Of a stretch of 64,000 bases of DNA, positions 1 through 24,375 are shown piece by piece (the first letter of the stretch is position 1; every line of letters starts with the position of its first letter). The stretch lies in NCBI GenBank assembly GCA_046484625.1, contig JAWOIO010000109.1, forward strand, positions 1,842 to 65,841, given 5' to 3'. Source of the stretch: Acidimicrobiia bacterium. Lineage in GTDB: Bacteria; Actinomycetota; Acidimicrobiia; IMCC26256; PALSA-555. A model generated the notes under the pieces. It saw nothing but the letters and a program-made list of their open reading frames with translations. It made no database searches and was not told the DNA's origin. Made by a program: the position numbers and the translations under genes.

Positions 1-1
1 G

Positions 2-607
2 CGGGTCGTCGTCGGGATCGACGAGGTGGGTCGCGGCTCGTGGGCCGGCCCGGTGACGGTCGCGGCTGTCGTGCCCGCCCCCGAGCACCTGAAGGGTGTG
101 CGCGACTCGAAGCAGCTCACGCGTGCGGAGCGCACGGTCGTCGCTGCGGACGTCCGCGACTGGGCCGTCGCGGTCGGGGTCGGCCACGCGTCCCACGACG
201 AGTGCGATGCGCTCGGGATGACTGCGGCGCAGCGCGTCGCCGCTCATCGGGCGCTGGCCCAGCTGGCCGACCAGGGGTACGAGCCCGATCGTGTGATCCT
301 CGACGGCAACCACGACTACCTCGCGATCGGTGACCGTGTCACCACCGTGGTGAAGGGGGACGCATCGGTCCTCGCCGTTGCCGCGGCCTCGTGCGTCGCG
401 AAGGTCGCGCGGGACACGCTCATGATCGAAGAGGCCGCGAGCTTCCCGCCCTACGACTTCGAGTCGAATGTCGGGTACCCGGCTCCGGTGCACAAGGCGG
501 CCCTCGCCGGGTACGGCCCCAGCTCGATCCATCGCCGTTCGTGGATCTTCATGGACTCGTTGTGCTGGCGTGGACTCCCACCGGCTGCGGGTCGGCTCTT
601 CAGCTGA
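2..607 (+). CDS. rnhB: Ribonuclease HII (5' end lies outside the window)
   Basis: Frame of ORF 26..607 stays open to the window edge. It reads ..VVVGIDEVGRGSWAGPV (RNase HII metal-binding motif), then DSKQL and later KGD/AAS..AK motifs. Confidence 0.85.
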   Translation, partial: RVVVGIDEVGRGSWAGPVTVAAVVPAPEHLKGVRDSKQLTRAERTVVAADVRDWAVAVGVGHASHDECDALGMTAAQRVAAHRALAQLADQGYEPDRVILDGNHDYLAIGDRVTTVVKGDASVLAVAAASCVAKVARDTLMIEEAASFPPYDFESNVGYPAPVHKAALAGYGPSSIHRRSWIFMDSLCWRGLPPAAGRLFS

Positions 608-664
608 TCGCGCCGTACCATGCGAGGCCCCGGTGCCCCGGGGCCCCGACCGAAGAGGAGCAAC

Positions 665-1231
665 ATGGCCGTCGACCTTCCCGAGGTGCACGCAGCTGCA
701 CTCGACCACACCCGCCGAGCCGTCGCCGGCATCGGCGACGAGCAGTGGCACCTCGACACGCCGTGTGCGGAATGGGATGTCCTGGCGCTGCTCCAGCACG
801 TGGTGAGTGGCAACCTCTGGGTCCCCGAGCTCACGGCCGGGCGCACGATCGAGGAGGTCGGCGACGCGCTCGACGGCGACGTCCTCGGCAACGACCCGCT
901 CGCCGCGTACGACGCGTCCGCCGCCGGCGCGGCCGCCGCCTTCCGGGCCGATGGCGCGATGGACGCACCGGTCGCGGTGTCGTACGGGCCGGTCCCCGGG
1001 TCGGTCTACTGCGGGCATCGCTTCATCGACGTCCTCATCCACGGGTGGGACCTCGCCTACGCGACCCGCCAGGACACGAACCTCCCCGAGGAGCTGGTCG
1101 AGGCCTGCTGGGAGGTCGTCGAGCCCCAGCGCGAGCTGCTGCAGGGCAGCGGCATGTTCGGCGAGGTCCCGATCCCCGAGGGCGGCGATCGCCAGGCGAC
1201 CCTGCTCGCGGTCCTCGGCCGCAGCGAATGA
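665..1231 (+). CDS. DinB / mycothiol-dependent maleylpyruvate-isomerase-like family protein
   Basis: ORF 620..1231, with the likely start at the internal ATG at 665 (MAVDLPEV). The helical DinB-like N-terminal pattern and size were recognised by eye only. Confidence 0.55.
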   Translation: MAVDLPEVHAAALDHTRRAVAGIGDEQWHLDTPCAEWDVLALLQHVVSGNLWVPELTAGRTIEEVGDALDGDVLGNDPLAAYDASAAGAAAAFRADGAMDAPVAVSYGPVPGSVYCGHRFIDVLIHGWDLAYATRQDTNLPEELVEACWEVVEPQRELLQGSGMFGEVPIPEGGDRQATLLAVLGRSE

Positions 1232-1250
1232 CGCAATAGGCTCGCTCGCC

Positions 1251-1616
1251 ATGGGTCAGGAGATCACCGTCACCTCGCGTCCGGGAGCGTCCCCGGCGAT
1301 CCGGATGTTCGCGTGCAACCGCTCTCTCACCGGGATGGCGATCGAGTCCTACGCCTCGATCGCCGACGCCGGCGGCAGCCGGGCGCCCGACGTGCTCGCG
1401 AAGCGGCTCTTCGACCTCGGTGCGACGCGGGTCACCGTGTACTCGAGCGACGTGACGGTCGAGGCACCCGAGTCGGCGTGGGCCGCGCTCGAGCCGAAGG
1501 TGGAGGAGACCATCCACCGCCTCTTCGGCTTCTACGGCGACGACGCCGGCTGGTCCGACGACAACCTGCGGGCGATGGGCGTGGAGCCCCTCCCGCGCCC
1601 GGAGCCGTCGGCCTAG
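1251..1616 (+). CDS. Hypothetical protein, NifU-N-terminal-like small alpha/beta protein
   Basis: ATG at 1251 inside long ORF 807..1616. High GC3. Similarity to Nfu/NifU N-terminal domain proteins is weak and judged by eye. Confidence 0.45.
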   Translation: MGQEITVTSRPGASPAIRMFACNRSLTGMAIESYASIADAGGSRAPDVLAKRLFDLGATRVTVYSSDVTVEAPESAWAALEPKVEETIHRLFGFYGDDAGWSDDNLRAMGVEPLPRPEPSA

Positions 1617-1640
1617 CGAGGACCCGCGATCCCGTCTTGC

Positions 1641-1662
1641 GTACCGAACATATGTTCGGTAC
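1641..1662 (+). promoter_or_regulatory. LexA-type SOS box (CGAAC-N4-GTTCG) upstream of imuA'
   Basis: Perfect 22-bp palindrome gtaccgaacat|atgttcggtac; core CGAACATATGTTCG at 1645..1658. It sits just upstream of the RBS ggagagg and the GTG at 1672, and matches the actinobacterial/Gram-positive LexA operator consensus. Confidence 0.75.
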
Positions 1663-1671
1663 AACGGAGAG

Positions 1672-2373
1672 GTGACCGCAGCACTTCCCCAGTCCGGTCA
1701 GCCCCAGCCCGGTCAGGCGCGGCGTGACCCCGAGGCCCGGGCCCGGTTGCGGGCGGTGGCCGAGCAGGCCCGCCCACTGACCCTCGCCCGGAGCCGCACG
1801 TTCCCCGTCCCCGGTCCGCTGGGCGAGCTCCTCCCCGGAGGGGGGCTGCGGCGGGGCGCCGTGGTCGGGGTCGGCGGCACACCGGGCGCCGGGGCCACCT
1901 CGGTGGCGTTCGCGCTCGCCGCCGCGGCGACGACCGCAGGGGAGTGGGCGGCGGCGATCGACCTCACCGGCACGTTGGGGGCCGAGGCCGCGGCGGCCGC
2001 GGGGGTCGCGCTCGAACGGTTCCCGGTGGTGCGCCTGGCCCACGGTCCCGCGTCGCGCTGGGCCACGGTGGTGGCCGCACTCCTCGACGGCGTGGGTCTC
2101 GTGCTCGCCGAGGTCCCGCCGCACGCGCGCGCGGGCGACGCCCGCCGGCTCGTGGCGCGGGCGCGGGAACGGGGGAGCGTCCTCGTCGTGCTCGGGGACC
2201 GGTGGCCGGGGAGCACCGCGGTGACGCTCGTCGCCGAGGGTGGACCCTGGTCGGAGGCCGAGGGAGAGGAGGACCGGGTCGCGGTGCTCCCCGTCCGCAC
2301 GGTGCAGGTGCAGGTCGCGGGGCGGGGGGACGCGGCCCGGGTGCGCCACGGTGCGCTCGCGGCCGGTGCCTGA
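1672..2373 (+). CDS. imuA': ImuA' (RecA-fold mutasome accessory protein)
   Basis: 233-aa ORF. Shows the LPGGGLRRGAVV..G, ..VVAALLDGV.. and ARERGSVLVVLG pattern typical of ImuA'. Supported by the upstream SOS box and an 8-nt overlap with imuB. Confidence 0.8.
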   Translation: MTAALPQSGQPQPGQARRDPEARARLRAVAEQARPLTLARSRTFPVPGPLGELLPGGGLRRGAVVGVGGTPGAGATSVAFALAAAATTAGEWAAAIDLTGTLGAEAAAAAGVALERFPVVRLAHGPASRWATVVAALLDGVGLVLAEVPPHARAGDARRLVARARERGSVLVVLGDRWPGSTAVTLVAEGGPWSEAEGEEDRVAVLPVRTVQVQVAGRGDAARVRHGALAAGA

Positions 2374-4018
2374 GCGCACACTCGCGCTGTGGTGCCCGGC
2401 GTGGTCGGTCACCACCGCCCGTCGGGAGGACCCCGCGCTGGTGGGGGCGCCGGTCGCGGTGGTCGAGCGCGGCGCACGGGGGCAGCTCGTGCGCGCGGTG
2501 TCGGCCGAGGCGCGCGACGAGAGCGTGACCGTCGGGCTGCGCCGGCGCGAGGCCGAGGCGCGCTGTGCCGGCTTGGTGGTCGTCGACCGCGACCCGGCCG
2601 CGGAGGCGCGGGCGTTCGAGGTCGTCGCGCGCGCGACCGAGCCGATCACTCCCGCGGTGGTCCTCGAACGACCGGGCGTGCTCACGTTCCCCACCCGAGG
2701 CCCGTCGCGCTACTTCGGTGGCGACGACGCGCTGGCGACGCGCGTGCTCGCCATTGTCACGGAGGCGGGGGTGGACGACGCGCGCGTCGGCATCGCCGAC
2801 GGCGGCTTCGCGTCCCGGCTCGCGACCCGGCGTGCGGCGCGCGACCAGAGTGCGGGGACGCTCGTCGTTCCCGCCGGCGGCTCGGCCGAGTTCCTCGCGC
2901 CGTGGCCGGTCGCGGTGCTGCGCGGTGTGCTCGGGACCGAGACCGAGGGGGACGCGTTCGTGAGCCTGCTCGTGCGGCTCGGGCTGCGCACGCTCGGCGA
3001 CTTCGCCGCGCTCCCCGCACCGTCGGTCCTCGCGCGCTTCGGGGCCGGCGGTGCACGCGCGCATCGCCTCGCGTGCGGGCTCGAGGAGCACGCCGCGCCC
3101 CCGATGCCACCCCCGCCCGAGCTGGCCGAGACCTGCGAGCTCGACCCGCCCGCGACGCGCGTCGACGAGGTCGCCTTCGCGGCCAAGGGGCTCGCCGACC
3201 GGCTCTTCGACCGGCTCGAGCTGCTGGGCCTCTCCTGCTCGCAGGTGGTGGTGGAGGCCGAGACCGAGCACGGCGAGCGCCACGCCCGCTGCTGGCGGCA
3301 CGAGGGCGGGCTCACCGCGGCATCGCTCGTCACCCGGGTCCGCTGGCAGCTCGACGCGTGGCTCACCGGCAGGTCCCCGGAGGGGCCCCAGGGAGAAGCG
3401 GAGGTAGAGGAGGCGACCGCGGGGCTCACCTTCCTGCGGATCGCCCCCGACCGGGTGGTGCCGGCGACCGGTCGACAGCTCGGACTGTGGGGTGGCGACG
3501 CGGCGAGCGCCGACCGGGCCGAGCGGGTGCTCGCCCGGATCCAGGGGATGCTCGGTCACGAGGCGGTGGCGACCGCGGTGGTGGTCGGTGGCCGGGCGCC
3601 GGTCGAGCGCATCCGATGGGTCCCGTGGGGCGAGCCTCGTGACGCGCCGGGCGCGTCGGGCGCCGACGCCGCGCCCTGGCCCGGTGCCGTCCCCGGGCCG
3701 CCCCCGGCGCGGGTGCACCCCGAGCCGGTGCCCGCCGAGCTGCTCGACGCCGACGGTGCCGACGTGCGGGTCTCGGGCCGAGGGGAGGCGACCGCGGAGC
3801 CCGCGTGGCTGCGCTGCGCGCTCCTGCCCGGAGGTGGCGGTCGGGTGCTCATGAGCACCGGGCCCTGGGCCCACGACCTGCGCTGGTGGGACCGGCTCAC
3901 CTGCCGGCGCCGGGTGCTCTGGCACGTGGTGGTGGCAACGCCCGACGAGTCCGGCCCGGTCGCATGCCTGGCCTCGTTGGAGGGCGGTCGGGCCGCCGTC
4001 GAGGCCGTCTACGACTGA
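2366..4018 (+). CDS. imuB: ImuB (Y-family polymerase-like mutasome subunit)
   Basis: GTG at 2366 in the frame of ORF 2240..4018. N-terminus reads TLALWCPAWSV...AVV....V.AVSAEAR..GV..GLRRREAEARC, typical of ImuB. Follows imuA'. Confidence 0.85.
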   Translation: MPERTLALWCPAWSVTTARREDPALVGAPVAVVERGARGQLVRAVSAEARDESVTVGLRRREAEARCAGLVVVDRDPAAEARAFEVVARATEPITPAVVLERPGVLTFPTRGPSRYFGGDDALATRVLAIVTEAGVDDARVGIADGGFASRLATRRAARDQSAGTLVVPAGGSAEFLAPWPVAVLRGVLGTETEGDAFVSLLVRLGLRTLGDFAALPAPSVLARFGAGGARAHRLACGLEEHAAPPMPPPPELAETCELDPPATRVDEVAFAAKGLADRLFDRLELLGLSCSQVVVEAETEHGERHARCWRHEGGLTAASLVTRVRWQLDAWLTGRSPEGPQGEAEVEEATAGLTFLRIAPDRVVPATGRQLGLWGGDAASADRAERVLARIQGMLGHEAVATAVVVGGRAPVERIRWVPWGEPRDAPGASGADAAPWPGAVPGPPPARVHPEPVPAELLDADGADVRVSGRGEATAEPAWLRCALLPGGGGRVLMSTGPWAHDLRWWDRLTCRRRVLWHVVVATPDESGPVACLASLEGGRAAVEAVYD

Positions 4019-4075
4019 ACGCGCCGTGACGCGCGGCACGACGCACCGGGCTCCGAACGCGTCGATACTGGTGAG

Positions 4076-4771
4076 ATGTCGAAGCCTGCACCGGTCGTAG
4101 TCGATGCCGACGCTCCGCTGCGCGTCTCCTCGCGGTCGGGGTCGGTCACGATCACGGCCGAGGACCGGCCCGACGTGCTCGTCGAGCGCGGTCCCGATGC
4201 CGTCGCATCACGCGACGGGGGGATCGAGATCAAGGGGAAGTCCGGTTCGGTGTCCGTGCGCTGCCCGAGCGGGTGCGACGTCGTCGTCGGGACCGGGTCC
4301 GGGTCGGTCACGCTCCATGGCGTCCTCGGCGACACCCGCGTGACCACCGGCAGTGGGAGTGTCACCGTCGAGCGCGCCGAGCGCATCGACGCCCGGACCG
4401 GCTCGGGCAGCGTGTCGATCGACGAGTGCGACGGCGACTGCCGCGCCCAGACCGGGAACGGCACGGTCCGGGTGGGCCGGGCCGCGTCGGTCGAGCTGTC
4501 GACAGGTTCGGGATCGATCGATGCCGACGAGGTCGGCGCGGCGCGCGTCCGCGTGGGGAGCGGCTCGGTCTCCGTCGGTCTGCGCGACGGTGGCGAGGCC
4601 GCGGTGGACACCGGGTCTGGCAATGTCACCGTGGTGGTGGCCGCAGGATGTTGCCCGACCACCGAGCTGCACACGAAGCGCGGCACCGTGCAGTGCGACT
4701 GCGCCCCGGGGACCGACGGTGCCATCCGCGTGCGCACGGGGAGCGGCAACATCACGGTCGAGGAGCGGTGA
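4076..4771 (+). CDS. DUF4097-like beta-helix repeat protein (putative adhesin fold), apparently cytoplasmic
   Basis: 231-aa ORF with about 10 iterations of (T/S)GSGSV(T/S)(V/I) spaced about 17-20 aa apart. No signal peptide or TM segment. Cys-rich C-terminal region (CCPTT..QCDC). Confidence 0.7.
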   Translation: MSKPAPVVVDADAPLRVSSRSGSVTITAEDRPDVLVERGPDAVASRDGGIEIKGKSGSVSVRCPSGCDVVVGTGSGSVTLHGVLGDTRVTTGSGSVTVERAERIDARTGSGSVSIDECDGDCRAQTGNGTVRVGRAASVELSTGSGSIDADEVGAARVRVGSGSVSVGLRDGGEAAVDTGSGNVTVVVAAGCCPTTELHTKRGTVQCDCAPGTDGAIRVRTGSGNITVEER

Positions 4772-5295
4772 GCGGCGCTGTCGCTCCGGGCGCCATCGTC
4801 TTCACCGACATCGTCGGCTTCACCGAGTTCACTGCGCAGCAGGGCGACACGGAGGCCCTGGCGATGCTCGACCGCCAGGATCGGCTCGTCCGTTCGGCGC
4901 TCCCCGATCGCGCCCGCATCGTCAAGGAGCTCGGCGACGGCCTCCTGCTCTGGTTCCCGGAGGCGGGCCCGGCGCTCGCGGTGTGTCTGGGCCTCCTCGA
5001 CTGCTTCGTCGACGTTCCCGCCGACACCCCGCCGCTCTGGGTGCGGATGGGGATGCACTGGGGCTGTCCGACGCCGCGCGGTGACGACCTCGTCGGGCAC
5101 GCGGTGAACCTCACCGCTCGCATCGTCGACGTCGCCGGGCCGGGCGAGCTCCTGGTCTCGGAGGAGGCCCGCGTCGCGGCCGACTCCGGCGGCGACGCAG
5201 TCGCGTTCGACGAGCTGGGGCCGGTCGTGATGCGCGGGATCCCCGATCCCGTGCCGCTCTACCGCGCGTCGCGGATGGTGCCGTCCAACACCTGA
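4768..5295 (+). CDS. Stand-alone class III adenylate cyclase catalytic domain
   Basis: GTG at 4768 overlaps the upstream stop (GTGA). Motifs present: FTDIVGFTEF, KELGDGLLLWF, MGMHWG, D-LVGHAVNLTARI. These cover the metal-binding Asp residues, the Lys/Asp specificity pair and the Asn/Arg pair. Confidence 0.75.
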   Translation: MSGAVAPGAIVFTDIVGFTEFTAQQGDTEALAMLDRQDRLVRSALPDRARIVKELGDGLLLWFPEAGPALAVCLGLLDCFVDVPADTPPLWVRMGMHWGCPTPRGDDLVGHAVNLTARIVDVAGPGELLVSEEARVAADSGGDAVAFDELGPVVMRGIPDPVPLYRASRMVPSNT

Positions 5296-5302
5296 CGCCC
5301 GG

Positions 5303-6367
5303 CTATCCGACCAAGCGGTAGAAGCGCCAGAAGTCGTGCTCGATCGGGAGCACCTCGACCTCGGCGTACCCGGCTTCGTGCGCGTAGCGCCGGAACGTGG
5401 GGGCGCGCATGATCGTGCCGGTGCCGGCGGCCGGGGGATCGGTCATTGCGCACGGCAGGCAATGGACGGCGCTGAAGCCCCATTGGAACCGCTCCATGTC
5501 GTCGACATCGAGGGTGAACTCGTCGGCGACCCGCTCGTCGGCGACCACGACCGCACCGCCGTCGGCACGCAGCGTGCGCATCGCGCGGAGCGCACCCACG
5601 GGGTCGCACATGTCGTGGATGGTCTCGAACGCGCACACGAGGTCGAAGGAGTCGGCAAGTCCCGGATCGGCCGCATCCCGTGCCTCGAAGGTCACGCGAT
5701 CCGCGACACCACGCGCCGCGGCGTTCTCCCGGGCAGTCTCGATCGATGCGTCGTCGAGGTCGAGGCCGACGACCCGGGCGTTGGGGTAGGCCTCGGCGAT
5801 CGCGATCGTCGACCATCCCGATCCGCATCCGACGTCGGCGACACGTGCGGGCGGATCGGCGCGGAGCCGGTCGTCGACATCGGTGATCGAGGGGAACCAG
5901 TCGGTCCCCAGCTGGTTCAGGAACATCGGCCGGTTCAGGAGCGCGATCGCCTCGCGGATGTCGGCACCGTAGGACTCGTACGGGACCCCGCCACCGGTGC
6001 GAAACGCGTCCAAGACCTCCGGCATCGCCTTCGCGATCCCCATGAGGGCGCGGCCTGCAGGCGCGAAGTAGGCGAGGCTCGTGTCGTCGAGCAGGACCTC
6101 GGCGTGCCCGTCGGGGAGGACGAACCGGCCGTCGTCGCCGAGCTCCAGAAAGCCGGCGACGGCCTGCTGTTGCAGCCACTCCCGCGCGTAGCGCTCGTGG
6201 ATCCCGGCCGCGCTCGCCAGGCCTGCCGGATCGAGCGGGCCGTCGTCGGCGAGCGCCCGATACAGGCCGAGCCGGTCACCGAGGTAGACGTTGGCGAACC
6301 TCCGTGCTCGTGCTGCCCGGACGGGATCATACGAGGCCGAGGCCCGAGCACGCACGAGCCGAGGCAT
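5303..6367 (-). CDS. Class I SAM-dependent methyltransferase with N-terminal winged-helix-like domain
   Basis: Distal 355 codons of ORF 5303..7504, starting MPRLVRA. SAM motif VADVGCGSGWSTIAIAE and GLDLD. Confidence 0.8.
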   Translation of the reverse strand: MPRLVRARASASYDPVRAARARRFANVYLGDRLGLYRALADDGPLDPAGLASAAGIHERYAREWLQQQAVAGFLELGDDGRFVLPDGHAEVLLDDTSLAYFAPAGRALMGIAKAMPEVLDAFRTGGGVPYESYGADIREAIALLNRPMFLNQLGTDWFPSITDVDDRLRADPPARVADVGCGSGWSTIAIAEAYPNARVVGLDLDDASIETARENAAARGVADRVTFEARDAADPGLADSFDLVCAFETIHDMCDPVGALRAMRTLRADGGAVVVADERVADEFTLDVDDMERFQWGFSAVHCLPCAMTDPPAAGTGTIMRAPTFRRYAHEAGYAEVEVLPIEHDFWRFYRLVG

Positions 6368-6403
6368 ACTGTCGGCCGCAGCGTCGTTGAGAAAGGTCCT
6401 GGT

Positions 6404-7873
6404 GTGCGTGCAGTTCGAACCATCGGCGCAATGCTCGTCGTCGGCGTCCTCGGGGTGAGCGGTCCGGTGGCCGGGGCCACCGCCGAGCCGGCCGTCGCGC
6501 CGATCACGGGTGGCACCGGCGAGCCGAGCCTGGTCACCACGAGCTTCGACCTGGCCGCGCTGGGCTACGAGAAGGCCGAGTACTTCCTCGAAGGGGACGC
6601 CGCCGCGTACGCGTCCGACACCCCGCTCACCGCAGACGGCCAATGGGAGGTCCAGCCCCTCGACGAGACCGCTCCGTACAACACCCGGATCCTCGTCTAC
6701 CGGCCGATCGACGCCGCCGACTTCAGCGGCACCGTCTTCGTCGAGTGGCTCAACGTCTCGGCCGGCTTCGACACCAGCCCCGACTGGAACCTCGCGCACA
6801 ACCAGATCCTCCGCAGCGGCGCGGTGTGGGTGGGGGTCTCGGCGCAGGCGGTCGGCGTGGTCGGTGGCGGCCAGGCCGTCGCAGGTCTGCAGTCGGGCGG
6901 ACTCAAGGGCGGCGACCCGGCGCGGTACGGAACCCTGGAGCACCCCGGCGACAGCTACTCCTACGACATCTTCTCCCAGGCCGGGACCGCCGTGCGGGGG
7001 ACCGCACCCGACGACCCCCTCGGCGGCCTGAAGGCGAAGCACGTCATCGCGATCGGTGAGTCGCAGTCGGCGTTCCGCATGGTCACCTACGTGAACGCGG
7101 TCCACCCGGTGGCGGAGGTCTACGACGGCTTCCTCGTGCACAGCCGTGGCTCCAACAGTGCCGCGCTGCTCGAGCGGCCGTTCCCGGGCATCTCCGCGCC
7201 CGACCGGACCCGGATCCGCCCCGACCTCGACGTGCCCGTGCTGACCTTCCAGACCGAGACCGACCTCGGCTTCGGGCACTTCCCGCCCCGCCAGGCCGAC
7301 AGCTCGACGTTCCGGCTCTGGGAGGTCGCGGGGACCTCCCACGCCGACGCGTACACGGCCCAGATCGGCTTCGGCGACGCCGGGGACGGCGCGGCCGAGG
7401 TCACCCTCCTCGACGTCGCCAACGCCGGTGGCGGTCCGTTGAACTGTGCGGTGCCCATGAACTACGGACCGCAGTACGCGGTGCTCCAGGCCGCGCTGGC
7501 GCACCTCGAGGCGTGGGTCGTCGACGGTGTGGCTCCGCCGAGGGCACCACGACTGCGCCTCGAGCCCGGCCTCCCTGCGGTCATCGAGCGCGATCGCAAT
7601 GGCAACGCACGGGGTGGGATCCGCACGCCGCTCGTCGACGCCCCGAACGCGACGTTGCGCGGTGACGGGAACGACGGCGGGAGGTTCTGCCAGCTCTTCG
7701 GCACGACGGTGCCGCTCGCGCCGACGACGATCGCGGCGCTCTACTCGTCACACGATGACTACGTGGCGAAGTTCACCGAAGCGACCGCGGCCGCCGTGAA
7801 GGCGGGCTTCCTGCTGGAGCCGGAGGCCGACAACCTGAACGCCGCGGCCGAGGCGTCGACCGTCGGGGGCTGA
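6404..7873 (+). CDS. Secreted alpha/beta-hydrolase-fold protein (function unknown)
   Basis: GTG at 6404 follows the RBS gaaagg, inside ORF 5336..7873. Signal peptide-like N-terminus (..LVVGVLGVSGPVAGATA|EP). GESQSA nucleophile-elbow-like motif. Confidence 0.6.
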   Translation: MRAVRTIGAMLVVGVLGVSGPVAGATAEPAVAPITGGTGEPSLVTTSFDLAALGYEKAEYFLEGDAAAYASDTPLTADGQWEVQPLDETAPYNTRILVYRPIDAADFSGTVFVEWLNVSAGFDTSPDWNLAHNQILRSGAVWVGVSAQAVGVVGGGQAVAGLQSGGLKGGDPARYGTLEHPGDSYSYDIFSQAGTAVRGTAPDDPLGGLKAKHVIAIGESQSAFRMVTYVNAVHPVAEVYDGFLVHSRGSNSAALLERPFPGISAPDRTRIRPDLDVPVLTFQTETDLGFGHFPPRQADSSTFRLWEVAGTSHADAYTAQIGFGDAGDGAAEVTLLDVANAGGGPLNCAVPMNYGPQYAVLQAALAHLEAWVVDGVAPPRAPRLRLEPGLPAVIERDRNGNARGGIRTPLVDAPNATLRGDGNDGGRFCQLFGTTVPLAPTTIAALYSSHDDYVAKFTEATAAAVKAGFLLEPEADNLNAAAEASTVGG

Positions 7874-7891
7874 GGCCCGCCCGAACCCGGG

Positions 7892-9496
7892 TCAGGCGAG
7901 GGCGACGAGGTCGAGCAGGTCGTCGGACCAGTAGTCGAGGTCACCCTCGGGCATCAGCAGCACCCGGTCGGGCGCGAGCCGCTCGACGAACCCCGCGTCG
8001 TGGCTCACCAGCACGATGGTCCCGGGCCAGGTCGCGAGCGCGGCACCGATCGCGTCGCGCGACGGCGGGTCGAGGTTGTTCGTCGGCTCGTCGAGCAGGA
8101 GCAGGTTGTGCTTGCCCGCGACGAGCTGCGCGAGCGCGAGCTTGGTCTTCTCGCCACCCGACAGCGTGCCTGCGTCCTGGTGCGCGATCTCGCCGCGAAG
8201 TCCGAACATGCCGAGCAGGTTCCGCTGCTCCTGGTTCGTCATCGACCCGTGGTCGGCGAAGTGCGACAGCACGGTCTTGCCGGCCGCGATGCCCTCGTGC
8301 TCCTGGGCGTAGTAGCCCGCCGAGACGTTGTGCCCGAGCTTCACGGATCCCGAGTCGGCCTCGGTGCGCTCGGCGAGGATGCGCATCAACGACGTCTTCC
8401 CTGCGCCGTTGAGCCCCATGATGAGCAGTCGCTCGTCGCGGCCGACATCGAAGGTGACGTCGGCGAACACTGGCGGCCCCCCGTAGCCCTTCTTCAGCCC
8501 CTCGACCGTCAGCACTGTGGAGCCTGGCCGCGGAGGCGCGGGGAAGCGCACGTTGATCGCCGCCTCCTTCTTCGGGCCGGTCTTGGCGTCGCGCCGCATG
8601 CGTGCGATGCGCGTGTCGAGTGCCTTGGCCTGCTTCGCGCGCTTCTCGGTCTGGCCGCGCATCGTGTCGGCCAGCGTCTTGATGCGCTTGATCTCGGACT
8701 GCTCGTGGGCGACGGTGCGGGCCAGCCGCACCTCGTCGGCCGCGCGCTGCTCGAGGTACTGCGAGTACGTGCCGCGGTACTCGGTCATCTGCGCGGCGTC
8801 GAGGTGCAAGATGCGGGTGATGGCCTCGTCGAGGAGCTGGAGGTCGTGGCTCACGACGAGGAGCGCGCCACGGTACGAGCGCAGGAAGCCGAGCAACCAC
8901 TCCTTGGCATCGGTGTCGAGGTGGTTGGTCGGCTCGTCGAGCAGGAGCAGCTCGCTCCCCGCGAACAGGATGCGCGACAGCTCGACGCGGCGACGCTCCC
9001 CGCCCGAGAGCGCGGAGAGGGGGAGGTCGAGCCGGTCGTCGGGGAGGCCGAGGCCGTGGGCGATCGTACGGGCCTCGGCGTCGGCGCCGTAGCCCCCTGC
9101 GCTTCGGTAGTTCTCCTCGGCCCGGGCGAAGCGGGCGACGTTGCGGTCGGTGGGGTCCTCGTCGACGCGGGCCCGCAGGATCTCGATCCGCTCGGCGGCG
9201 GTGTCGAGTCCCCGGCCCGAGAGGACGTGGGCCAGCGCGGTGATCTCGGTGGAGCGGGAACGGGGCTTGGGGTCCTGGGGGAGATAGCCCAGCTCGTCGG
9301 AGCGCAGGACCGTGCCCCCGGCGGACGGCGCCTCACCGGCGAGCACCTTGAGCAGGCTCGTCTTCCCCGTGCCGTTGCGGCCGACGAGGCCGACGGTGTC
9401 ACCGGCGCGCAGCGAGAACGAGGCGTCCGCCAACGTCTGGCGGCCACCGACCTCGACCGAGAGGGAACGGACCTGGAGCACCCTCCATGATCCCAC
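7892..9496 (-). CDS. ABC-F family ATPase (two ABC domains, no TM domain)
   Basis: 534-aa ORF. Two Walker A motifs (GRNGTGKT, GLNGAGKT), two LSGGE signatures, and an Arg/Lys-rich inter-domain linker. Exact start is uncertain (GTG at 9496 or GTG at 9481). Confidence 0.85.
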   Translation of the reverse strand: MGSWRVLQVRSLSVEVGGRQTLADASFSLRAGDTVGLVGRNGTGKTSLLKVLAGEAPSAGGTVLRSDELGYLPQDPKPRSRSTEITALAHVLSGRGLDTAAERIEILRARVDEDPTDRNVARFARAEENYRSAGGYGADAEARTIAHGLGLPDDRLDLPLSALSGGERRRVELSRILFAGSELLLLDEPTNHLDTDAKEWLLGFLRSYRGALLVVSHDLQLLDEAITRILHLDAAQMTEYRGTYSQYLEQRAADEVRLARTVAHEQSEIKRIKTLADTMRGQTEKRAKQAKALDTRIARMRRDAKTGPKKEAAINVRFPAPPRPGSTVLTVEGLKKGYGGPPVFADVTFDVGRDERLLIMGLNGAGKTSLMRILAERTEADSGSVKLGHNVSAGYYAQEHEGIAAGKTVLSHFADHGSMTNQEQRNLLGMFGLRGEIAHQDAGTLSGGEKTKLALAQLVAGKHNLLLLDEPTNNLDPPSRDAIGAALATWPGTIVLVSHDAGFVERLAPDRVLLMPEGDLDYWSDDLLDLVALA

Positions 9497-9510
9497 GCGG
9501 GCCTGCGGGT

Positions 9511-9668
9511 TCCCGCACCGCTTTCCGTGACGGATCGCGCCCGCGCACCGGTTCTGGTGACGGATCGCGCCCGCGCACCGGTTCTGGTGACGGATCGCGC
9601 CGTCACGGGGGCCGGATCCGACACGAGAAGGGTGGGGAGGGCCGGATCCGTCACGAGAAGGGAGCGGC
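9511..9668. repeat. Composite tandem-repeat block: about 3.5 copies of one 30-bp unit followed by 2 copies of a second 30-bp unit with inverted complementarity
   Basis: gtgacggatcgcgcccgcgcaccggttctg is identical at 9527..9556 and 9557..9586; a partial third copy starts at 9587 and a degenerate copy lies at 9497..9526. gggccggatccg(a/t)cacgagaaggg occurs at 9609 and 9639. gtgacggatc and gatccgtcac are reverse complements. Confidence 0.85.
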
Positions 9669-9683
9669 GAAGCAGTGCTCAGA

Positions 9684-10112
9684 TCAGCGGAGCTCGCAGA
9701 TCTCGTACGTGAGGATGGTGTTGTCCTCCGAGAGCGTCCCCTTGGCCACCGCCTGGATCGCGTTCAGCCAGGTGTAGCGCTCGTCGCCGGTCTCGTAGAG
9801 CGGCGCGGCGTAGATCGGCTTGACGCCCGGGCCCTCGGAGAAGTCGGTCCGGCCGTGGTACCAGGAGTAGACGAGGGCGCCGTCGTGGGTCTCGAAGAGG
9901 GCGCGCACATCGAGCGTGCCGACCCCCTCGGCGCTCAGGGTCATCCAGTCGGCGGCGGCGACGCCCTTCAAGCTGCCCCGCAACCGATCGCCCTCGTACG
10001 CACCCTCGCGGACCTCGGCGATGATCCGGGTCCCCGACGGGGTGGACGGGAGGACGAATGGCTCGGCCAGCGTGATGCGGGCGGTGGCGAGGGGGACGAG
10101 CTCGATGGTCAT
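9684..10112 (-). CDS. DUF3237-like beta-barrel protein
   Basis: Internal ATG (MTIELVPL) of ORF 9684..10256. The G.R...EV.EG..EG..L.G.....AADWM....EGVG.LDVR pattern resembles DUF3237. Confidence 0.6.
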   Translation of the reverse strand: MTIELVPLATARITLAEPFVLPSTPSGTRIIAEVREGAYEGDRLRGSLKGVAAADWMTLSAEGVGTLDVRALFETHDGALVYSWYHGRTDFSEGPGVKPIYAAPLYETGDERYTWLNAIQAVAKGTLSEDNTILTYEICELR

Positions 10113-10182
10113 GGTGGCATCCTGCCAGAGCGTGCCCGGCCGGGCGACCAGATCGCGCGCAGCCGGACGATAGGTTCGCGCC

Positions 10183-10641
10183 ATGCTGCAGACAGGTGAC
10201 CTGGTCGACGACTTCGAGCTCCCCGACCAGACGGGCGCGGTGCGGCGGCTCAGCACGATGCTTGCCGACGGGCCGGTGGTGCTGTTCTTCTACCCCGCGG
10301 CGATGACCAAGGGCTGCACGATGGAGAGCTGCCACTTCCGGGACCTCGCGGCGGAGTTCGCCGCGGCGGGCGCGCAGCGCGTCGGCATCAGCGGCGACAC
10401 CGTCGACACGCAGAAGGAGTTCTCCGACGCCCACGAGTTCGACTACCCGCTGCTCGCGGACACCGAGGGCACCGTCGCCGAGCTCTTCGGCGTGAAGCGC
10501 TCGTTCGGGATCTCGCCGTTGAAGCGGGCCACGTTCGTGATCGACCGGGACCGGACGGTCCTCGCCGCGATCAAGAGCGAGATCCGCATGAACGTCCACG
10601 CCGACAAGGCGCTCGAGGTGCTGCGAGCCGCGGCCGCCTGA
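10183..10641 (+). CDS. bcp: Thiol peroxidase / peroxiredoxin Bcp
   Basis: 152-aa ORF with the FFYPAAMTKGCTMESCHFRD motif (peroxidatic Cys in T-x-x-C). Size and layout are typical of Bcp. Confidence 0.85.
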   Translation: MLQTGDLVDDFELPDQTGAVRRLSTMLADGPVVLFFYPAAMTKGCTMESCHFRDLAAEFAAAGAQRVGISGDTVDTQKEFSDAHEFDYPLLADTEGTVAELFGVKRSFGISPLKRATFVIDRDRTVLAAIKSEIRMNVHADKALEVLRAAAA

Positions 10642-10669
10642 GCCTCGGTTCGGACCGGGCTTGCCGTAG

Positions 10670-10683
10670 CGAACATACGTTCG
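10670..10683 (+). promoter_or_regulatory. LexA-type SOS box upstream of dnaE2
   Basis: CGAACATACGTTCG lies 37 nt upstream of the dnaE2 ATG. It has the same core as the box at 1645..1658. Confidence 0.75.
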
Positions 10684-10720
10684 ATACGGTGCTCTCCCCG
10701 AGCGGAGTGGGCCAGGCGCC

Positions 10721-13700
10721 ATGTACGCGGAGCTGCACTGCCACACGAACTTCTCGTTCCTCGACGGGGCGAGCCACCCCGAGGAGCTGGTCGACGAGGC
10801 CGTGCGGCTCGGGCTCGCCGGCCTGGCCGTCACCGACCACGACGGCTGCTACGGGGTGGTGCGCTTCGCCGAGGCCGCCCGCACCGCAGCTCTGCCCACG
10901 GTGTTCGGCGCCGAGCTCACACTCGAGCGGCGTGCCGGAGCAGCGAGCACCGGAGCAGCGAGCGTCCCGGAGGCCGATCCACCTGGCGAGCATCTCGTGG
11001 TGCTCGCCGACGGAGTGGAGGGGTACGCCCGACTCGCACGCGCGGTGAGTGCCGCGCAGATGGCAGGGGAGAAGGGGGCGCCGCGCTTCACGCTCGCGGG
11101 GCTCGCCGAGGGTGCCCGCGCCGGAGTGCACGTCAACGGGAACCGGGCCAGCGTCACGAACGACTCGTGGTTCGTGCTCACGGGGTGTCGCAAGGGCGCG
11201 GTACCGAGCGCGCTCATGGCCGACGGGCCCGCCGCGGCCCGCCACGCCCTCGACCGCCTGGTCGCGGCGTTCGGGCGCGAACGGGTGCTGGTGGAGCTGT
11301 GGGACCACGGCGACCCGCTCGACCGGCATCGCAACGACGCGCTCGCCCGGGTCGCCGTGCACGCGGGCGTGGAGGTCGTCGCCACCAACAACGTGCACTA
11401 CGCGACCTCGAAGCAGCGCCCGCTCGCCACCGCGCTCGCCGCGGTGCGGGCCCGGCGCTCGCTCGACGAGCTCGACGGGTGGCTCCCCGCCGCGGGGTTC
11501 GCGCACCTGCGCTCGCCGGGGGAGCAGGCCCGACGCTTCGCGCGCTGGCCCGGCGCGGTGCAGCGTTCGGTGGAGGTCGCGCAGGAGTGCGCGTTCGACC
11601 TCCGGCTCGCCGCTCCCGAGCTCCCCGACCTCGAGGTGCCGGAGGGGCACACCGACATGTCGTGGCTGCGTGAGCTCACCAGACGCGGCGCCGAGGTGCG
11701 CTACCCGCGCTCGCACCCGCAGCACGAGCAGGCGCAACGGCAGATGGCCTATGAGCTCGACGTGATCGAGCAGCTGAACTTCCCCGGCTACTTCCTCGTC
11801 CTCGTCGACATCGTCGACTTCTGCCGTCGCTCCGACATCTACTGCCAGGGACGGGGGAGCGCCGCCAACAGCGCGGTCTGCTACGCGCTCGGCGTCACCA
11901 AGGCCGACGCGGTCGCGCTCGGGCTGCTGTTCGAGCGCTTCCTCTCGCCCGAGCGCGACGGCCCACCCGACATCGACCTCGACATCGAGCACGAACGCCG
12001 CGAGGAGGTCATCCAACACGTCTACGAGAAGTACGGGCGCGACCGCGCCGCGCAGGTCGCGAACGTCATCACCTACCGGCCCCGCTCCGCGATGCGCGAG
12101 ATGGCCAAGGTCGCCGGGCTCTCGCCCGGGCAGGCCGACGCGCTCAGCAAGCGCATTGACGGCTGGGCCGGTCGGGGTGGGGACGGGGGCGCGTCGGCTC
12201 TCCAGGGGGTACGTGACTCCGGCACCGCCCTCCCCGACCTCGTGCTCGACCTCGCCACCCAGGTGCTCGACTACCCCCGCCACCTCGGGATCCACTCCGG
12301 CGGCATGGTGATGGCCGACCGGCCACTGGTGGAGTTCTGCCCGGTGGAGTGGGCCCGCATGGAGGACCGGTCGGTGCTCCAGTGGGACAAGGACGACTGC
12401 GCGGCTGCGGGGCTCGTGAAGTTCGACCTGCTCGGCCTCGGGATGCTCACGATGCTGCACCTCGCCGTCGACCTGGTGCGCGAGCACGAGGGCATCGACC
12501 TCGACCTTGCCACCATCCCCCAGGAGGACGAGGTCTACGACCTGCTCTGCGCGGCCGACACGATCGGCGTGTTCCAGGTGGAGAGCCGGGCCCAGATGGC
12601 CACGTTGCCCCGCCTGCGGCCCCGCACCTTCTACGACCTGGTGATCGAGGTCGCGCTCATCCGACCCGGCCCGATCCAGGGCGGCTCCGTGCACCCGTAC
12701 CTGCGCCGGCGCGCCGGCGAGGAGCCCGTCACCTACCCGCACCCGGTGCTGGAGCCCTGCCTGCGCAAGACCCTCGGCGTGCCGCTGTTCCAGGAGCAGC
12801 TCATGCAGATCGCGATCGACGCGGCCGGGTTCACGCCCGGCGAGGCCGACCGGCTGCGTCAGGCGATGGGCTCGAAGCGGTCGAAGGCGCGCATGGCCGC
12901 GATGCGGGAGCGGCTCATGGTCGGGATGGCCGAGCGGGGAATTGTCGGCGACACCGCCGAGGAGATCGCCACCAAGCTCGAGGCGTTCGCGCACTTCGGC
13001 TTCCCCGAGAGCCACTCGGTGAGCTTCGCCTACCTCGTGTACTCGAGCGCGTGGGTGAAGTACCACCACCCCGACGCGTTCGCGTGCGCGCTGCTCAACG
13101 CGCAGCCGATGGGCTTCTACTCGCCGCACACGATCACCCGAGACGCGATCCGCCACGGGGTCGAGGTGCTCGGCCCGTGCGTGCAGGCATCGCGCCGCGA
13201 GTGCACGCTCGAGCCGCGCTCACGCGACGCCGGTCCCATCGGCGTGCCTCAGCCCGGCTGGCACGCCGCACCGTCCACCCGTGCCATGCGCGTCGGCCTG
13301 CGCTACGTGCGCGGGCTGTCGAGCGCGCTGCTCGACCGCATCGACGCGACCCGTGAGGCGGACGGCAGGTTCGTGGACCTGGAGGACTTCACCCGGCGCA
13401 CGCACGCACCGGTCGACGCGCTGGAGGCGCTCGCCACCGCGGGCGCGTTCGCGTGCTTCGGCGTCGGTCGACGGGACGCGCTCTGGGCCGCGGGCGCGCT
13501 GGGCGAGGTACGGCCCGGTCGCCTCCCCGGCGTGGTCACCGGCGTCGAGGCACCCCGCCTCCCCGGCATGGATCCCATCGAGGAGACCGCCGCCGACCTC
13601 TGGTCCACCGGGCTGTCGGCCGGCGCGCACCCCACCGAGTTCGCCCGGGAGCGGCTCGCTGCCCGCGGTGCGGTCACCGCGGCGGGGCTGCGGGACCTCC

Positions 13701-13987
13701 CGCACCGCACGGTCGTGGAGGTGGGTGGGGTGGTCACGCACCGCCAGCAGCCCGAGACCGCGCACGGCGTGGTGTTCCTCAACCTCGAGGACGAGACGGG
13801 GTTGGTGAACGTGATCTGCACGCCCGACGTGTGGAGGCGGTTCCGGAGGGTCGCCCGCGAGTCGCCGGCCCTGTGCGTGCGCGGGCTCCTCGAACGCCAC
13901 CAGGGCGTCATCAACCTCATCGCCCGCCGCATCGAGCCGCTCGACCTGCGCCCGGCCTCGCTGCTGCGTTCCCGCGACTTCCGCTAG
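10721..13987 (+). CDS. dnaE2: Error-prone DNA polymerase III alpha-like subunit DnaE2
   Basis: 1088-aa ORF. PHP domain start MYAELHCHTNFSFLDGAS, polymerase core motifs, length typical of DnaE2, SOS box upstream, and imuA'B nearby. Confidence 0.9.
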   Translation: MYAELHCHTNFSFLDGASHPEELVDEAVRLGLAGLAVTDHDGCYGVVRFAEAARTAALPTVFGAELTLERRAGAASTGAASVPEADPPGEHLVVLADGVEGYARLARAVSAAQMAGEKGAPRFTLAGLAEGARAGVHVNGNRASVTNDSWFVLTGCRKGAVPSALMADGPAAARHALDRLVAAFGRERVLVELWDHGDPLDRHRNDALARVAVHAGVEVVATNNVHYATSKQRPLATALAAVRARRSLDELDGWLPAAGFAHLRSPGEQARRFARWPGAVQRSVEVAQECAFDLRLAAPELPDLEVPEGHTDMSWLRELTRRGAEVRYPRSHPQHEQAQRQMAYELDVIEQLNFPGYFLVLVDIVDFCRRSDIYCQGRGSAANSAVCYALGVTKADAVALGLLFERFLSPERDGPPDIDLDIEHERREEVIQHVYEKYGRDRAAQVANVITYRPRSAMREMAKVAGLSPGQADALSKRIDGWAGRGGDGGASALQGVRDSGTALPDLVLDLATQVLDYPRHLGIHSGGMVMADRPLVEFCPVEWARMEDRSVLQWDKDDCAAAGLVKFDLLGLGMLTMLHLAVDLVREHEGIDLDLATIPQEDEVYDLLCAADTIGVFQVESRAQMATLPRLRPRTFYDLVIEVALIRPGPIQGGSVHPYLRRRAGEEPVTYPHPVLEPCLRKTLGVPLFQEQLMQIAIDAAGFTPGEADRLRQAMGSKRSKARMAAMRERLMVGMAERGIVGDTAEEIATKLEAFAHFGFPESHSVSFAYLVYSSAWVKYHHPDAFACALLNAQPMGFYSPHTITRDAIRHGVEVLGPCVQASRRECTLEPRSRDAGPIGVPQPGWHAAPSTRAMRVGLRYVRGLSSALLDRIDATREADGRFVDLEDFTRRTHAPVDALEALATAGAFACFGVGRRDALWAAGALGEVRPGRLPGVVTGVEAPRLPGMDPIEETAADLWSTGLSAGAHPTEFARERLAARGAVTAAGLRDLPHRTVVEVGGVVTHRQQPETAHGVVFLNLEDETGLVNVICTPDVWRRFRRVARESPALCVRGLLERHQGVINLIARRIEPLDLRPASLLRSRDFR
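10935..10964. repeat. 15-bp tandem duplication inside dnaE2
   Basis: ccggagcagcgagca / ccggagcagcgagcg; encodes AGAAS-TGAAS within the PHP-domain region. Confidence 0.8.
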
Positions 13988-13998
13988 AACTCCTGGCC

Positions 13999-14490
13999 AT
14001 GAGCGAACCGATCACCCTGATCCCCATCGGCCGGCTCGTGGGCGGGCGCACCGAGCCGATCGACGACGACTGGGACGCGGTCGAGGCGACGATCATGCTC
14101 GACCCCACCCAGCTCGACGCCGACGCCACCGCCGGCCTCGACGCGTTCTCGCACCTCGACGTGGTGTTCGCGTTCCACCGCGTGCCGGACGAAGAGATCC
14201 ATCGTGGCGCCCGGCACCCGCGCGGTCGGGAGGACTGGCCGTTGGTGGGGATCCTCGCCCAACGGGGGAAGGGGCGTCCGAACCGGATCGGGGTGAGCAC
14301 GTGCGCGCTCGTCCGCGTCGACGGGTTCACCCTGCACGTGCGAGGGCTCGACGCGATCGACGGCTCGCCCGTGCTCGACGTGAAGGCGCACTTCGAGGAG
14401 ATGGGACCCCGCGGTGAGGTCCGCCAGCCCGCGTGGAGCCGTGAGGTCATGACGGGGTACTGGTCCGATCGGGAGTCCCCGCACGGGTGA
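13999..14490 (+). CDS. TrmO/TsaA (YaeB)-like SAM-dependent methyltransferase
   Basis: ATG at 13999 in ORF 13453..14490. Motifs F.R.P.RPNRIG.S...L..V.G..L.V.GLDA.DG.P.LD.K. Confidence 0.75.
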   Translation: MSEPITLIPIGRLVGGRTEPIDDDWDAVEATIMLDPTQLDADATAGLDAFSHLDVVFAFHRVPDEEIHRGARHPRGREDWPLVGILAQRGKGRPNRIGVSTCALVRVDGFTLHVRGLDAIDGSPVLDVKAHFEEMGPRGEVRQPAWSREVMTGYWSDRESPHG

Positions 14491-23568: not shown

Positions 23569-24375
23569 CTAGCGCTGGTCGGCCTGGTCGGCCTGGTCGC
23601 GGATCCGGGCCGCGTAGACCGCGGCCTGGGTCCGCCGCTCCATCCCGAGCTTCGTGAGCAGGTTCGAGACGTAGTTCTTCACGGTCTTCTCGGCCAGGTG
23701 CACCTTCTCGGCGATCTGACGGTTCGTGAGCCCGTCGGCGATCAGGTCGAGGATCTTGCGCTCCTGGCTCGTGAGCCGGGCGAGGCGCTCGTCGGTCTCC
23801 GGCCCCGAGCGGAGCCGCTCGAGCACACGGGCGGTGACCGCCGGGTCGAGCAGCGACTGGCCCAGCGCGACCTGGCGGATGCCGGCCACGAGGTCCTGAC
23901 CCTTCACCTGCTTGAGCAGGTAGCCGGCGGCACCGGCCATGATCGCCTGGAACAGTGCCTCGTCGTCGGCGAACGACGTGAGGATCAGGCACTGGATCTC
24001 GGGGTGGTGGGATCGGATGTCGCGGCACACCTCGACGCCGCTGCCGTCGGGGAGTCGCACGTCGAGCACCGCCACGTCGGGCCGGGTCGGCGGGATCCGC
24101 GAGAGCGCCTCCTCGGCCGTCCCGGCCTCGCCGACCACGGTGAGGTCGCCCTCGGCCTCGAGCAGGTCGCGCAGTCCGCGCCGCACGACCTCGTGGTCGT
24201 CGACCAGGAACACCCGCACCGGCTCGCCGGTGCTCGCGGGCTCGTCGGGCGCGGATCCGGTGGTCGTGGGCTTGGGCGTCTTGGGCTTGGGCGTCTTGGG
24301 CTTGGGCGTCTTGGGCTTGGTGGTCGTGGGCTTGGGCGTCTTGGCCTTGGCTGGCACCGAAGGAGTCTTACCCAC
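23569..24375 (-). CDS. NarL/LuxR-family response regulator, DevR/DosR-like, with Lys/Pro/Thr-rich N-terminal extension
   Basis: Distal part of ORF 23569..25230. Motifs VFLVDDHEVVRRGL, RPDVAVLDVRLPDGSG, LILTS, LAEKTVKNYVSNLLTKLGMERRTQAAV. The start is uncertain: GTG at 24375 or 24357, or at the receiver-domain GTG near 24216. Confidence 0.85.
   Translation of the reverse strand: MGKTPSVPAKAKTPKPTTTKPKTPKPKTPKPKTPKPTTTGSAPDEPASTGEPVRVFLVDDHEVVRRGLRDLLEAEGDLTVVGEAGTAEEALSRIPPTRPDVAVLDVRLPDGSGVEVCRDIRSHHPEIQCLILTSFADDEALFQAIMAGAAGYLLKQVKGQDLVAGIRQVALGQSLLDPAVTARVLERLRSGPETDERLARLTSQERKILDLIADGLTNRQIAEKVHLAEKTVKNYVSNLLTKLGMERRTQAAVYAARIRDQADQADQR
24259..24351. repeat. 15-bp tandem repeat, about 6 copies, encoding (KTPKP)n on the minus strand
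   Basis: gggcttgggcgtctt is repeated from 24268 with two variant units (gggcttggtggtcgt). The minus-strand frame AAG-ACG-CCC-AAG-CCC has G or C at every third position. Confidence 0.85.

Follow-up and report, generated by a model that had tools for sequence, protein, structure and literature searches.

A direct-then-inverted array of 22-bp motifs upstream of an ABC-F ATPase gene in Acidimicrobiia: a probable copy of a dispersed intergenic repeat family

We examined the repeats lying between a DUF3237 gene and an ABC-F ATPase gene on contig JAWOIO010000109.1 of an Acidimicrobiia bacterium, within a stretch of 64,000 nucleotides (the window, whose first letter is position 1). The original prediction, made from the letters of this stretch, had these repeats as the leader of the ABC-F gene. 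The block is probably one copy of a dispersed intergenic repeat family, restricted to one lineage and similar in kind to repetitive extragenic palindromes (REP), REPINs and miniature inverted-repeat transposable elements (MITEs). This family is previously undescribed and occurs in a small group of uncultured Acidimicrobiia. The features of the locus, and the arrays found elsewhere, are collected in Table 1.

Table 1. Features of the ABC-F locus in the window, unit numbers at the same locus in close relatives, and arrays at other loci
Feature	Position	Strand	Remarks
ABC-F ATPase gene	7892..9481	-	529 aa, GTG start at 9481
Non-repeat block directly upstream of ABC-F	9482..9518	-	Conserved in all six close relatives, including two without an array
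Whole repeat array	9519..9662	.	Plus strand: three direct then two inverted units
Unit 1, outermost, nearest ABC-F	9521..9542	+	Degenerate core CTTTCCGTGACGGATCGCGCCC
Unit 2	9551..9572	+	GTTCTGGTGACGGATCGCGCCC
Unit 3, innermost direct	9581..9602	+	Ends GCCG, not GCCC
Local 7-bp hairpin GTGACGG-ATCGCG-CCGTCAC	9587..9606	.	Palindrome centre
Unit 4, innermost inverted	9609..9630	-	CTTCTCGTGTCGGATCCGGCCC; one core change, GTGTC
Unit 5, outer inverted	9639..9660	-	CTTCTCGTGACGGATCCGGCCC
DUF3237 gene	9684..10115	-	143 aa from ATG at 10115
ABC-F locus, window			2+3 units (gene orientation)
ABC-F locus, L001			2+2 units (gene orientation)
ABC-F locus, L077			2+1 units (gene orientation)
ABC-F locus, L075			2+3 units (gene orientation); upstream gene is a divergent AhpC, DUF3237 absent
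ABC-F locus, L074			No array
ABC-F locus, L076			No array
L035 array	4563-4730		4 direct + 2 inverted; between AMP-binding and acyl-CoA dehydrogenase genes
L010 arrays	990-2186		2+2 and 2+3; either side of a DUF559 open reading frame, one at a convergent and one at a divergent gene pair
L024 array			1+2; after a VWA_CoxE gene
L008 array			2+2; between convergent genes

The ABC-F protein equals NCBI MFO7590562.1, from an Acidimicrobiia metagenome-assembled genome (MAG), except for the start residue, and every one of its named homologues belongs to Acidimicrobiia or Acidimicrobiales. Two GTG codons, at 9496 and 9481, were candidates for the start. Homologues are 528-531 aa long in nearly all cases, and on the close-relative contig L076 an in-frame TAG separates the two candidates; the start was therefore placed at GTG 9481, which makes the spacer 202 bp, not the 187 bp reckoned originally from GTG 9496. 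The same TAG excludes the upstream start, giving 534 aa, that some annotations use. The DUF3237 stop codon lies 31 nt ahead of the first unit core. No open reading frame (ORF) both starts and ends inside the spacer, and none there is preceded by a Shine-Dalgarno-like sequence, in agreement with the earlier statement that there is no short leader ORF.

Tandem Repeats Finder (TRF) returned two tracts of period 30, one at 9527-9601 (2.5 copies, 100% identity, score 150) and one at 9609-9662 (1.9 copies, 82%). The units of the second tract are reverse complements of those in the first, and the whole block is an imperfect palindrome with arms of 55 and 50 nt that are 73-74% complementary, so that the mutually complementary units of the original prediction are borne out. 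The unit itself is an asymmetric 22-bp motif, GTTCTCGTGAC-N7-GCCC, and its five copies have core start-to-start spacings of 30, 30, 38 and 30 bp; read in gene direction (minus strand) the array is two forward and three reverse units. The pattern TTCYSGTGAC-N7-GCCC with at most one mismatch matched five times in the 64-kb window, all within the array (0.23 expected), and the four occurrences of GTGACGGATC were likewise all within it (0.48 expected); a second array was not found in the window. By TRF and by the five units, then, the repeat block is real and was described essentially correctly at the outset, with two adjustments to the units themselves: the "about 3.5 copies" are 2.5 exact copies and one degenerate core (CTTTCCGTGAC at 9521-9531), making three cores, and the exact sequence ascribed to every unit is carried by four of the five, the unit at 9609-9630 having GATCCGACAC in place of the exact 10-mer. 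The 30 bp at 9527-9556 and 9557-9586 are 100% identical, which points to a recent tandem duplication; units of 100% identity also occur within the arrays of L035 and within those of L010. The local hairpin that had been pointed out at 9587-9606 is present in the sequence and is specific to the window copy, other arrays having YCATGR at their centre.

The dispersal of the unit was assessed by scanning one genome per species with GCGATCCGTCACSAGAAC. This gave about 55 single matches in unrelated phyla and a handful of arrays, all of them in Acidimicrobiia-type MAGs. In its array form the unit is present at five other intergenic regions unrelated to ABC-F, between genes that are co-oriented, convergent or divergent, and the exact 22-mer GTTCTCGTGACGGATCGCGCCC is found among the units at other loci in the same register. 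The sample amounts to nine arrays from about six genomes, and four of the arrays were found by way of an exact 18-mer, which biases the set toward consensus units. All nine are intergenic, and most begin 11-61 nt past the stop codon of a gene reading into them. At least four arrays, on three contigs, are carried by one MAG, JBKJJI01. It and DASUAO01 also have ABC-F orthologues 95-98% identical to that of the window and so belong to the same narrow lineage; placement by ABC-F orthologue was not possible for VAR_35_metabat_335 (L008).

Two of the arrays (L035, 4563-4730; L010, 2048-2186) lie directly upstream of acyl-CoA dehydrogenase genes. These dehydrogenases are only 39% identical and hence are paralogues next to independent arrays, and the notion that the two arrays are orthologous was rejected for that reason; their shared position may be coincidence, or a hint of a preference for a site or gene class. 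The DUF559/REase-like ORF of L010 (minus strand, about 1089-2100), whose N-terminal half appears degenerate, is the only nuclease-like gene bracketed by arrays. It was considered as a mobiliser and dropped, having no homologue in the window or near other arrays and a degenerate-looking N-terminal half.

Searches for a known counterpart of the unit gave little. Rfam returned only chance miRNA and sRNA hits (at E<=10 for the region, at E<=1 for five other array loci). A metagenome scan with TTCTSGTGACGGATCGCGCC, of a collection that did not return even the L001 contig, gave six single matches and no arrays, the six being probably chance matches in coding DNA. In the literature the core 10-mer came up in unrelated primers only, and no paper tying Acidimicrobiia to REP elements was found. 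A CRISPR array was rejected, as the units are separated by only 6-8 nt. To our knowledge the core fits none of the parS, DnaA box, matS, CRP, PHO/GlnR box, attC, LexA or PafBC motifs.

The arrays share one architecture. In all nine (38 units counted, and one more found later) a direct block is followed by an inverted block, and among the 38 units every core starts 30 bp from its neighbour in the same arm, or 38 bp from its neighbour across the centre, and there is no indel; for seven arrays the central 108 nt can be aligned gap-free. Little or no variation is seen in TTC-Y-S-GTGAC and in the GCCC seven bases on, which form a bipartite asymmetric motif covering about one helical turn, while the heptamer between core and GCCC and the 6-8-nt spacers are variable. 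A single unit is not palindromic, and the 30-mers of the consensus and of the window fold no better than shuffled sequences (z +0.39 and +0.79, respectively). One direct and one inverted consensus unit together make a perfect 54-nt palindrome of -55.5 kcal/mol (z -11).

We compared the same locus on six close-relative contigs, on which the ABC-F orthologues differ from that of the window by 7-11% of nucleotides (Table 1). The number of units changes freely, from none to five, with the ABC-F gene and the roughly 45 bp directly before its start conserved on all six contigs, and the array as a whole is dispensable at this locus. The comparison of copy number among relatives, which had been put forward as a check on a leader, thus came out against one. 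The array is also absent from ABC-F orthologues at 74-81% amino-acid identity. L074, one of the two contigs with no array, clusters with the window for both ABC-F and the hydrolase gene next to it (bootstrap 99-100%) and is about 95% identical to the window over the syntenic region, with 23 nt between alignable flanks vs the window's 166 nt. No unit is detectable in L074 (nhmmer E>0.1); the 59-bp spacer of this contig was looked at as possible leftover units, but the likeness is too faint for such a claim.

From 6292 to 10641 the divergence between the window and L074 is mosaic, at 2.8% for Abhydrolase_10, 7.1% for ABC-F and about 12% for DUF3237, which suggests recombination around the array locus.

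Folding of the block was significantly better than that of shuffles on either strand, at -118.4 kcal/mol (z -3.3) for the minus strand and -128.1 kcal/mol (z -4.1) for the plus strand. Since both strands fold about equally, folding gives no preference to the minus-strand transcript. Pairing between the arms was then assessed across arrays. Mirror partners of the heptamer are complementary in 41% of cases, vs 44% for the arms of unrelated arrays, and neighbouring heptamers within one arm are 66% identical. In the gap-free alignment 71.1% of cells are paired vs 74.7% after shuffling of partners, and the covariation score is 0.064 vs 0.122 for shuffles. The core variants TTCCG, TTCCC and TTCTG on one arm have no compensating change on the partner. 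This lack of covariation argues against helix-dependent riboregulator or terminator models and speaks for a protein that recognises the motif.

Constraint was estimated as mean pairwise differences among the orthologous arrays of the window, L001, L077 and L075. The p-distance was 0.094 for the 10-nt core and 0.042 for GCCC, compared with 0.40 for the variable heptamer, 0.36 for the spacer, 0.47 for the 5' flank of the unit and 0.28 for the 4-fold degenerate sites of ABC-F. Core and GCCC thus diverge 3-7 times slower than the 4-fold sites, taken as a neutral proxy, and the remainder at or above the rate of these sites. Homogenisation within arrays cannot explain the pattern, as whole 30-bp units would then be homogenised. 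What is conserved seems to be sequence recognition, not a hairpin, and the hairpin potential would therefore be a by-product of the inverted arrangement of the motif and not a selected feature.

The sequence next to the ABC-F start was compared at window positions 9482-9496 and the matching positions of L001, L002 and L070-L077. Ten of 11 orthologues, reaching down to 74% amino-acid identity, share a TGnGAnnAT that ends 5 nt upstream of the start codon, or 6 nt in one case; in the eleventh the GAnnAT is retained and the TG is lacking. In the window the element reads TG-G-GATCAT (9495-9487), an extended -10-like element ending 5 nt before the start codon. Actinobacterial promoters have a -10 element TAnnnT with an optional extended TGn, and leaderless mRNAs are frequent in these bacteria. 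In the window GGAGG abuts the GTG with zero spacing, and several relatives are without any Shine-Dalgarno-like sequence. Because the conserved -10-like element sits 5 nt before the start codon, ABC-F transcription would start downstream of the repeats, and not ahead of them as the original prediction had it, and its mRNA would be leaderless. The array lies between the DUF3237 stop and the ABC-F core promoter and therefore is probably outside the ABC-F mRNA. On the gene strand there is no terminator-like site in 9300-10900, and the sequence past the array, GGAAAGCGGTGCGGG, has no T-run.

These data fit best with a probable lineage-restricted family of dispersed intergenic repeats. A member consists of n direct and then m inverted copies held in fixed register (30 bp per arm, 38 bp across the centre), and the entire array can be missing from a close relative. 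In the mechanism we propose, whole 30-bp units would be gained or lost through slippage or unequal exchange. The units would behave as sites recognised by a sequence-specific protein, be it a spreading enzyme or a host factor, and not as a selected RNA helix. Locally, in the window, the array would most likely give DUF3237 transcripts a long GC-rich 3' hairpin that, as REP elements do, serves as terminator, 3'-end stabiliser or insulator.

Likeness to known systems is partial in each case. Like the REP elements, bacterial interspersed mosaic elements (BIMEs) and REPINs of E. coli and Pseudomonas, the units are short GC-rich extragenic repeats at many intergenic sites, occur in arrays often found past stop codons, differ in copy number from strain to strain, and form a long hairpin from inverted copies, as in a REPIN. 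A REP unit, however, is an imperfect palindrome of 20-40 nt, and the single unit here is not a palindrome; orientation alternates in BIMEs, whereas here a direct block is followed by an inverted one; and the rigid 30/38/30 register and apparently low copy number differ from all three. The consensus centre is a perfect palindrome that recalls the hairpin unit of a REPIN, but its pairing is without compensatory change. The mycobacterial interspersed repetitive units (MIRUs) and other variable number tandem repeats (VNTRs) of mycobacteria are also dispersed intergenic tandem repeats of variable unit number, next to co-oriented genes in an actinobacterial host; MIRUs, however, are 40-100 bp, strictly head-to-tail, and often hold small ORFs overlapping the flanking genes, whereas the units here are 30 bp, always have an inverted arm and hold no ORF. 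MITEs with long terminal inverted repeats (Correia/NEMIS, ERIC, RUP) are likewise small non-coding palindromic elements that are present or absent in close relatives, and multi-site transposon ends (Tn7, Mu, Tn402-type) have asymmetric sites of about 22 bp that are direct within an arm, with the arms inverted, so that the arrays look like two such ends joined without cargo. Unlike these, no target-site duplication, autonomous partner or TG...CA tip was found, and the perfect tandem 30-bp duplications point to slippage in situ.

Several observations weigh against a mobile repeat family. Filled and empty sites have flanks that align too poorly for a target-site duplication to be defined, and no transposase or RAYT-like gene adjoins any array in the flanks examined. 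Nor did the unit match anything in the phage, plasmid and viral contig collections. The apparent copy number is low, with one array in the 64-kb window and at least four in one MAG, which is far under that of classical REP families. Constraint on the core in situ, together with the rigid register, would be unexpected for a purely selfish element and hints at a host function; the estimate of this constraint is based on four related taxa and three units. The difference between L074 and the window is 7.1% for ABC-F and only 2.8% for the neighbouring hydrolase gene, and the absence of the array from L074 could accordingly represent allelic replacement instead of deletion. The start of ABC-F transcription is a point drawn from conservation only.

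The host-function hint leads to a bolder reading, in which the arrays would be phased platforms of the bipartite 22-bp site TTCYSGTGAC-N7-GCCC for a putative sequence-specific DNA-binding protein, kept by purifying selection in the 30/38/30 register with direct and inverted sites always in opposed blocks. We regard this as doubtful, though with a chance large enough to matter: if it is true, uncultured Acidimicrobiia would have a chromosomal cis-element of a type not described before. The general form of the idea, that the arrays are host cis-elements acting on flanking genes including ABC-F, either as binding platforms (operator array, roadblock or nucleoid site) or as outward-facing promoters, we likewise consider unlikely, short of dismissing it. 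The slow core and GCCC, the 38 units in fixed register without an indel, the bipartite asymmetric motif over about one helical turn, and pairing not being the conserved property would all be accounted for, as would the L075 array that still adjoins ABC-F although DUF3237 is absent and the two arrays upstream of acyl-CoA dehydrogenase paralogues. However, two of six independent loci are between convergent gene ends, where a promoter or operator is unexpected; the ~95%-identical L074 has an intact ABC-F gene and proximal region but no array, as does L076; and no known motif was recognised, the literature hits for the core being unrelated primers only. As to promoters, outward-facing ECF-like ones may be created between adjacent units: in tandem inverted units GAGAAC stands 18 nt before the CGTC of the next unit, a spacing like that of the -35 and -10 elements of ECF (extracytoplasmic function) sigma factors, but this is a matter of pattern-matching and leaves GCCC unexplained. 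A distinctly improbable alternative is that the arrays are bidirectional terminators lacking a U-tract, or mRNA 3'-end stabilisers, kept for a GC-rich hairpin that ends the transcripts of the upstream gene. Their usual place shortly after the stop codon of a gene reading in, the perfect 54-nt consensus palindrome and the folding of the window array on both strands are what such a family would give. Set against this, every core variant is unmatched on the partner arm with no compensatory change, the variable heptamers are mostly unpaired and the helices hence short, the gene strand has no T-run after the array, two arrays (that of L075 and the second of L010) lie between divergent genes, and the sister genome L074 is without an array.

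That the array serves ABC-F as a dedicated control leader is very unlikely, as the family is present at unrelated sites and a sister about 95% identical has no array. In the original prediction the repeats form a 5' leader that attenuates ABC-F expression through alternative pairings and mutually exclusive stem-loops, by a mechanism other than the classical one. The ribosome-dependent attenuators of vmlR, msr, vga and lsa share with the array a place upstream of an ABC-F gene and the ability to form alternative hairpins. Several pairing registers are indeed possible, the minimum-free-energy structure making up 0.4% of the ensemble (minus strand), and the array is upstream of ABC-F in four of six close relatives. 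The protein itself reaches, among the NCBIfam models, only the generic "ribosomal protection-like ABC-F" model NF000355, and that barely (390.6 bits vs a cut-off of 380), and its best hit in a PDB search is PoxtA. But it scores far under the cut-offs of all models specific for the antibiotic-resistance (ARE) class, EttA, YheS, Uup and YbiT are near-equal PDB hits at about the same distance, and nothing assigns it to an ARE subfamily. Unlike the ARE attenuators, the spacer has no leader peptide and no U-tract terminator; the array has not been kept along with the gene and is found at unrelated genes too. With none to five units in near relatives while the gene is conserved, no terminator-like site, no covariation, and a -10-like element that implies a start downstream of the repeats, a leader of this kind is given very little credence. 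Of the two outcomes named at the outset as refuting it, free variation of copy number is seen by direct comparison, and a transcription start downstream of the repeats is deduced from conservation. The VNTR/MIRU-like minisatellite, offered originally as the alternative, comes close to the evidence in its variable unit number and takes no account of the inverted arm or of the dispersed family members. In its strict form, a purely local VNTR arising by slippage at this spacer with no relatives elsewhere, it would explain the two 30-bp units of 100% identity and the variation among relatives; it is refuted by the same unit, exact 22-mer included, in the same register at five other loci and by the inverted arm in every array, and has next to no chance of being right.

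For the ABC-F locus the result removes a tempting, and in all likelihood wrong, story of a new attenuator. For the probable repeat family that takes its place, the set of properties is unusual: a non-palindromic unit, direct-then-inverted blocks, a register without indels, and a core that evolves slowly without preserved pairing of the arms. Together these properties point to a specific partner protein that could be searched for, be it a mobilising enzyme or a host factor. Since unit number and presence differ already at about 95% identity, the arrays might be used to tell strains apart in metagenomes, and they probably also cause assembly breaks in these MAGs.

Some further observations were made on the surroundings. 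In most close relatives the ABC-F gene lies within an error-prone repair neighbourhood (window 1-14000; L001, L002, L070, L074-L077), with an imuA'-like gene (MT3502_N) and imuB (IMS) on one side and, in the window and L001, dnaE2 on the other; the gene content between imuA'-like/imuB and dnaE2 differs among relatives. An indel cassette of about 1.27 kb (4027-5297), holding DUF4097 (toastrack) and guanylate-cyclase-domain genes between a methyltransferase gene and imuB, is missing from L074 and present in L001, L076 and L077. The window also has three 15-bp tandem repeats: GTCTTGGGCTTGGGC at 24263-24350 (5.9 copies, 89% identity), GGAGCGCCGGATCAG at 39122-39169 (3.2 copies, 100% matches) and ATCAGGCGTCCGGCG at 47002-47047 (3.1 copies, 93% matches). 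The latter two have GATCAGG in common and encode 5-residue repeats in the C-terminal tails, outside Pfam domains, of a CoA-transferase III ORF and a GNAT acetyltransferase ORF, respectively.

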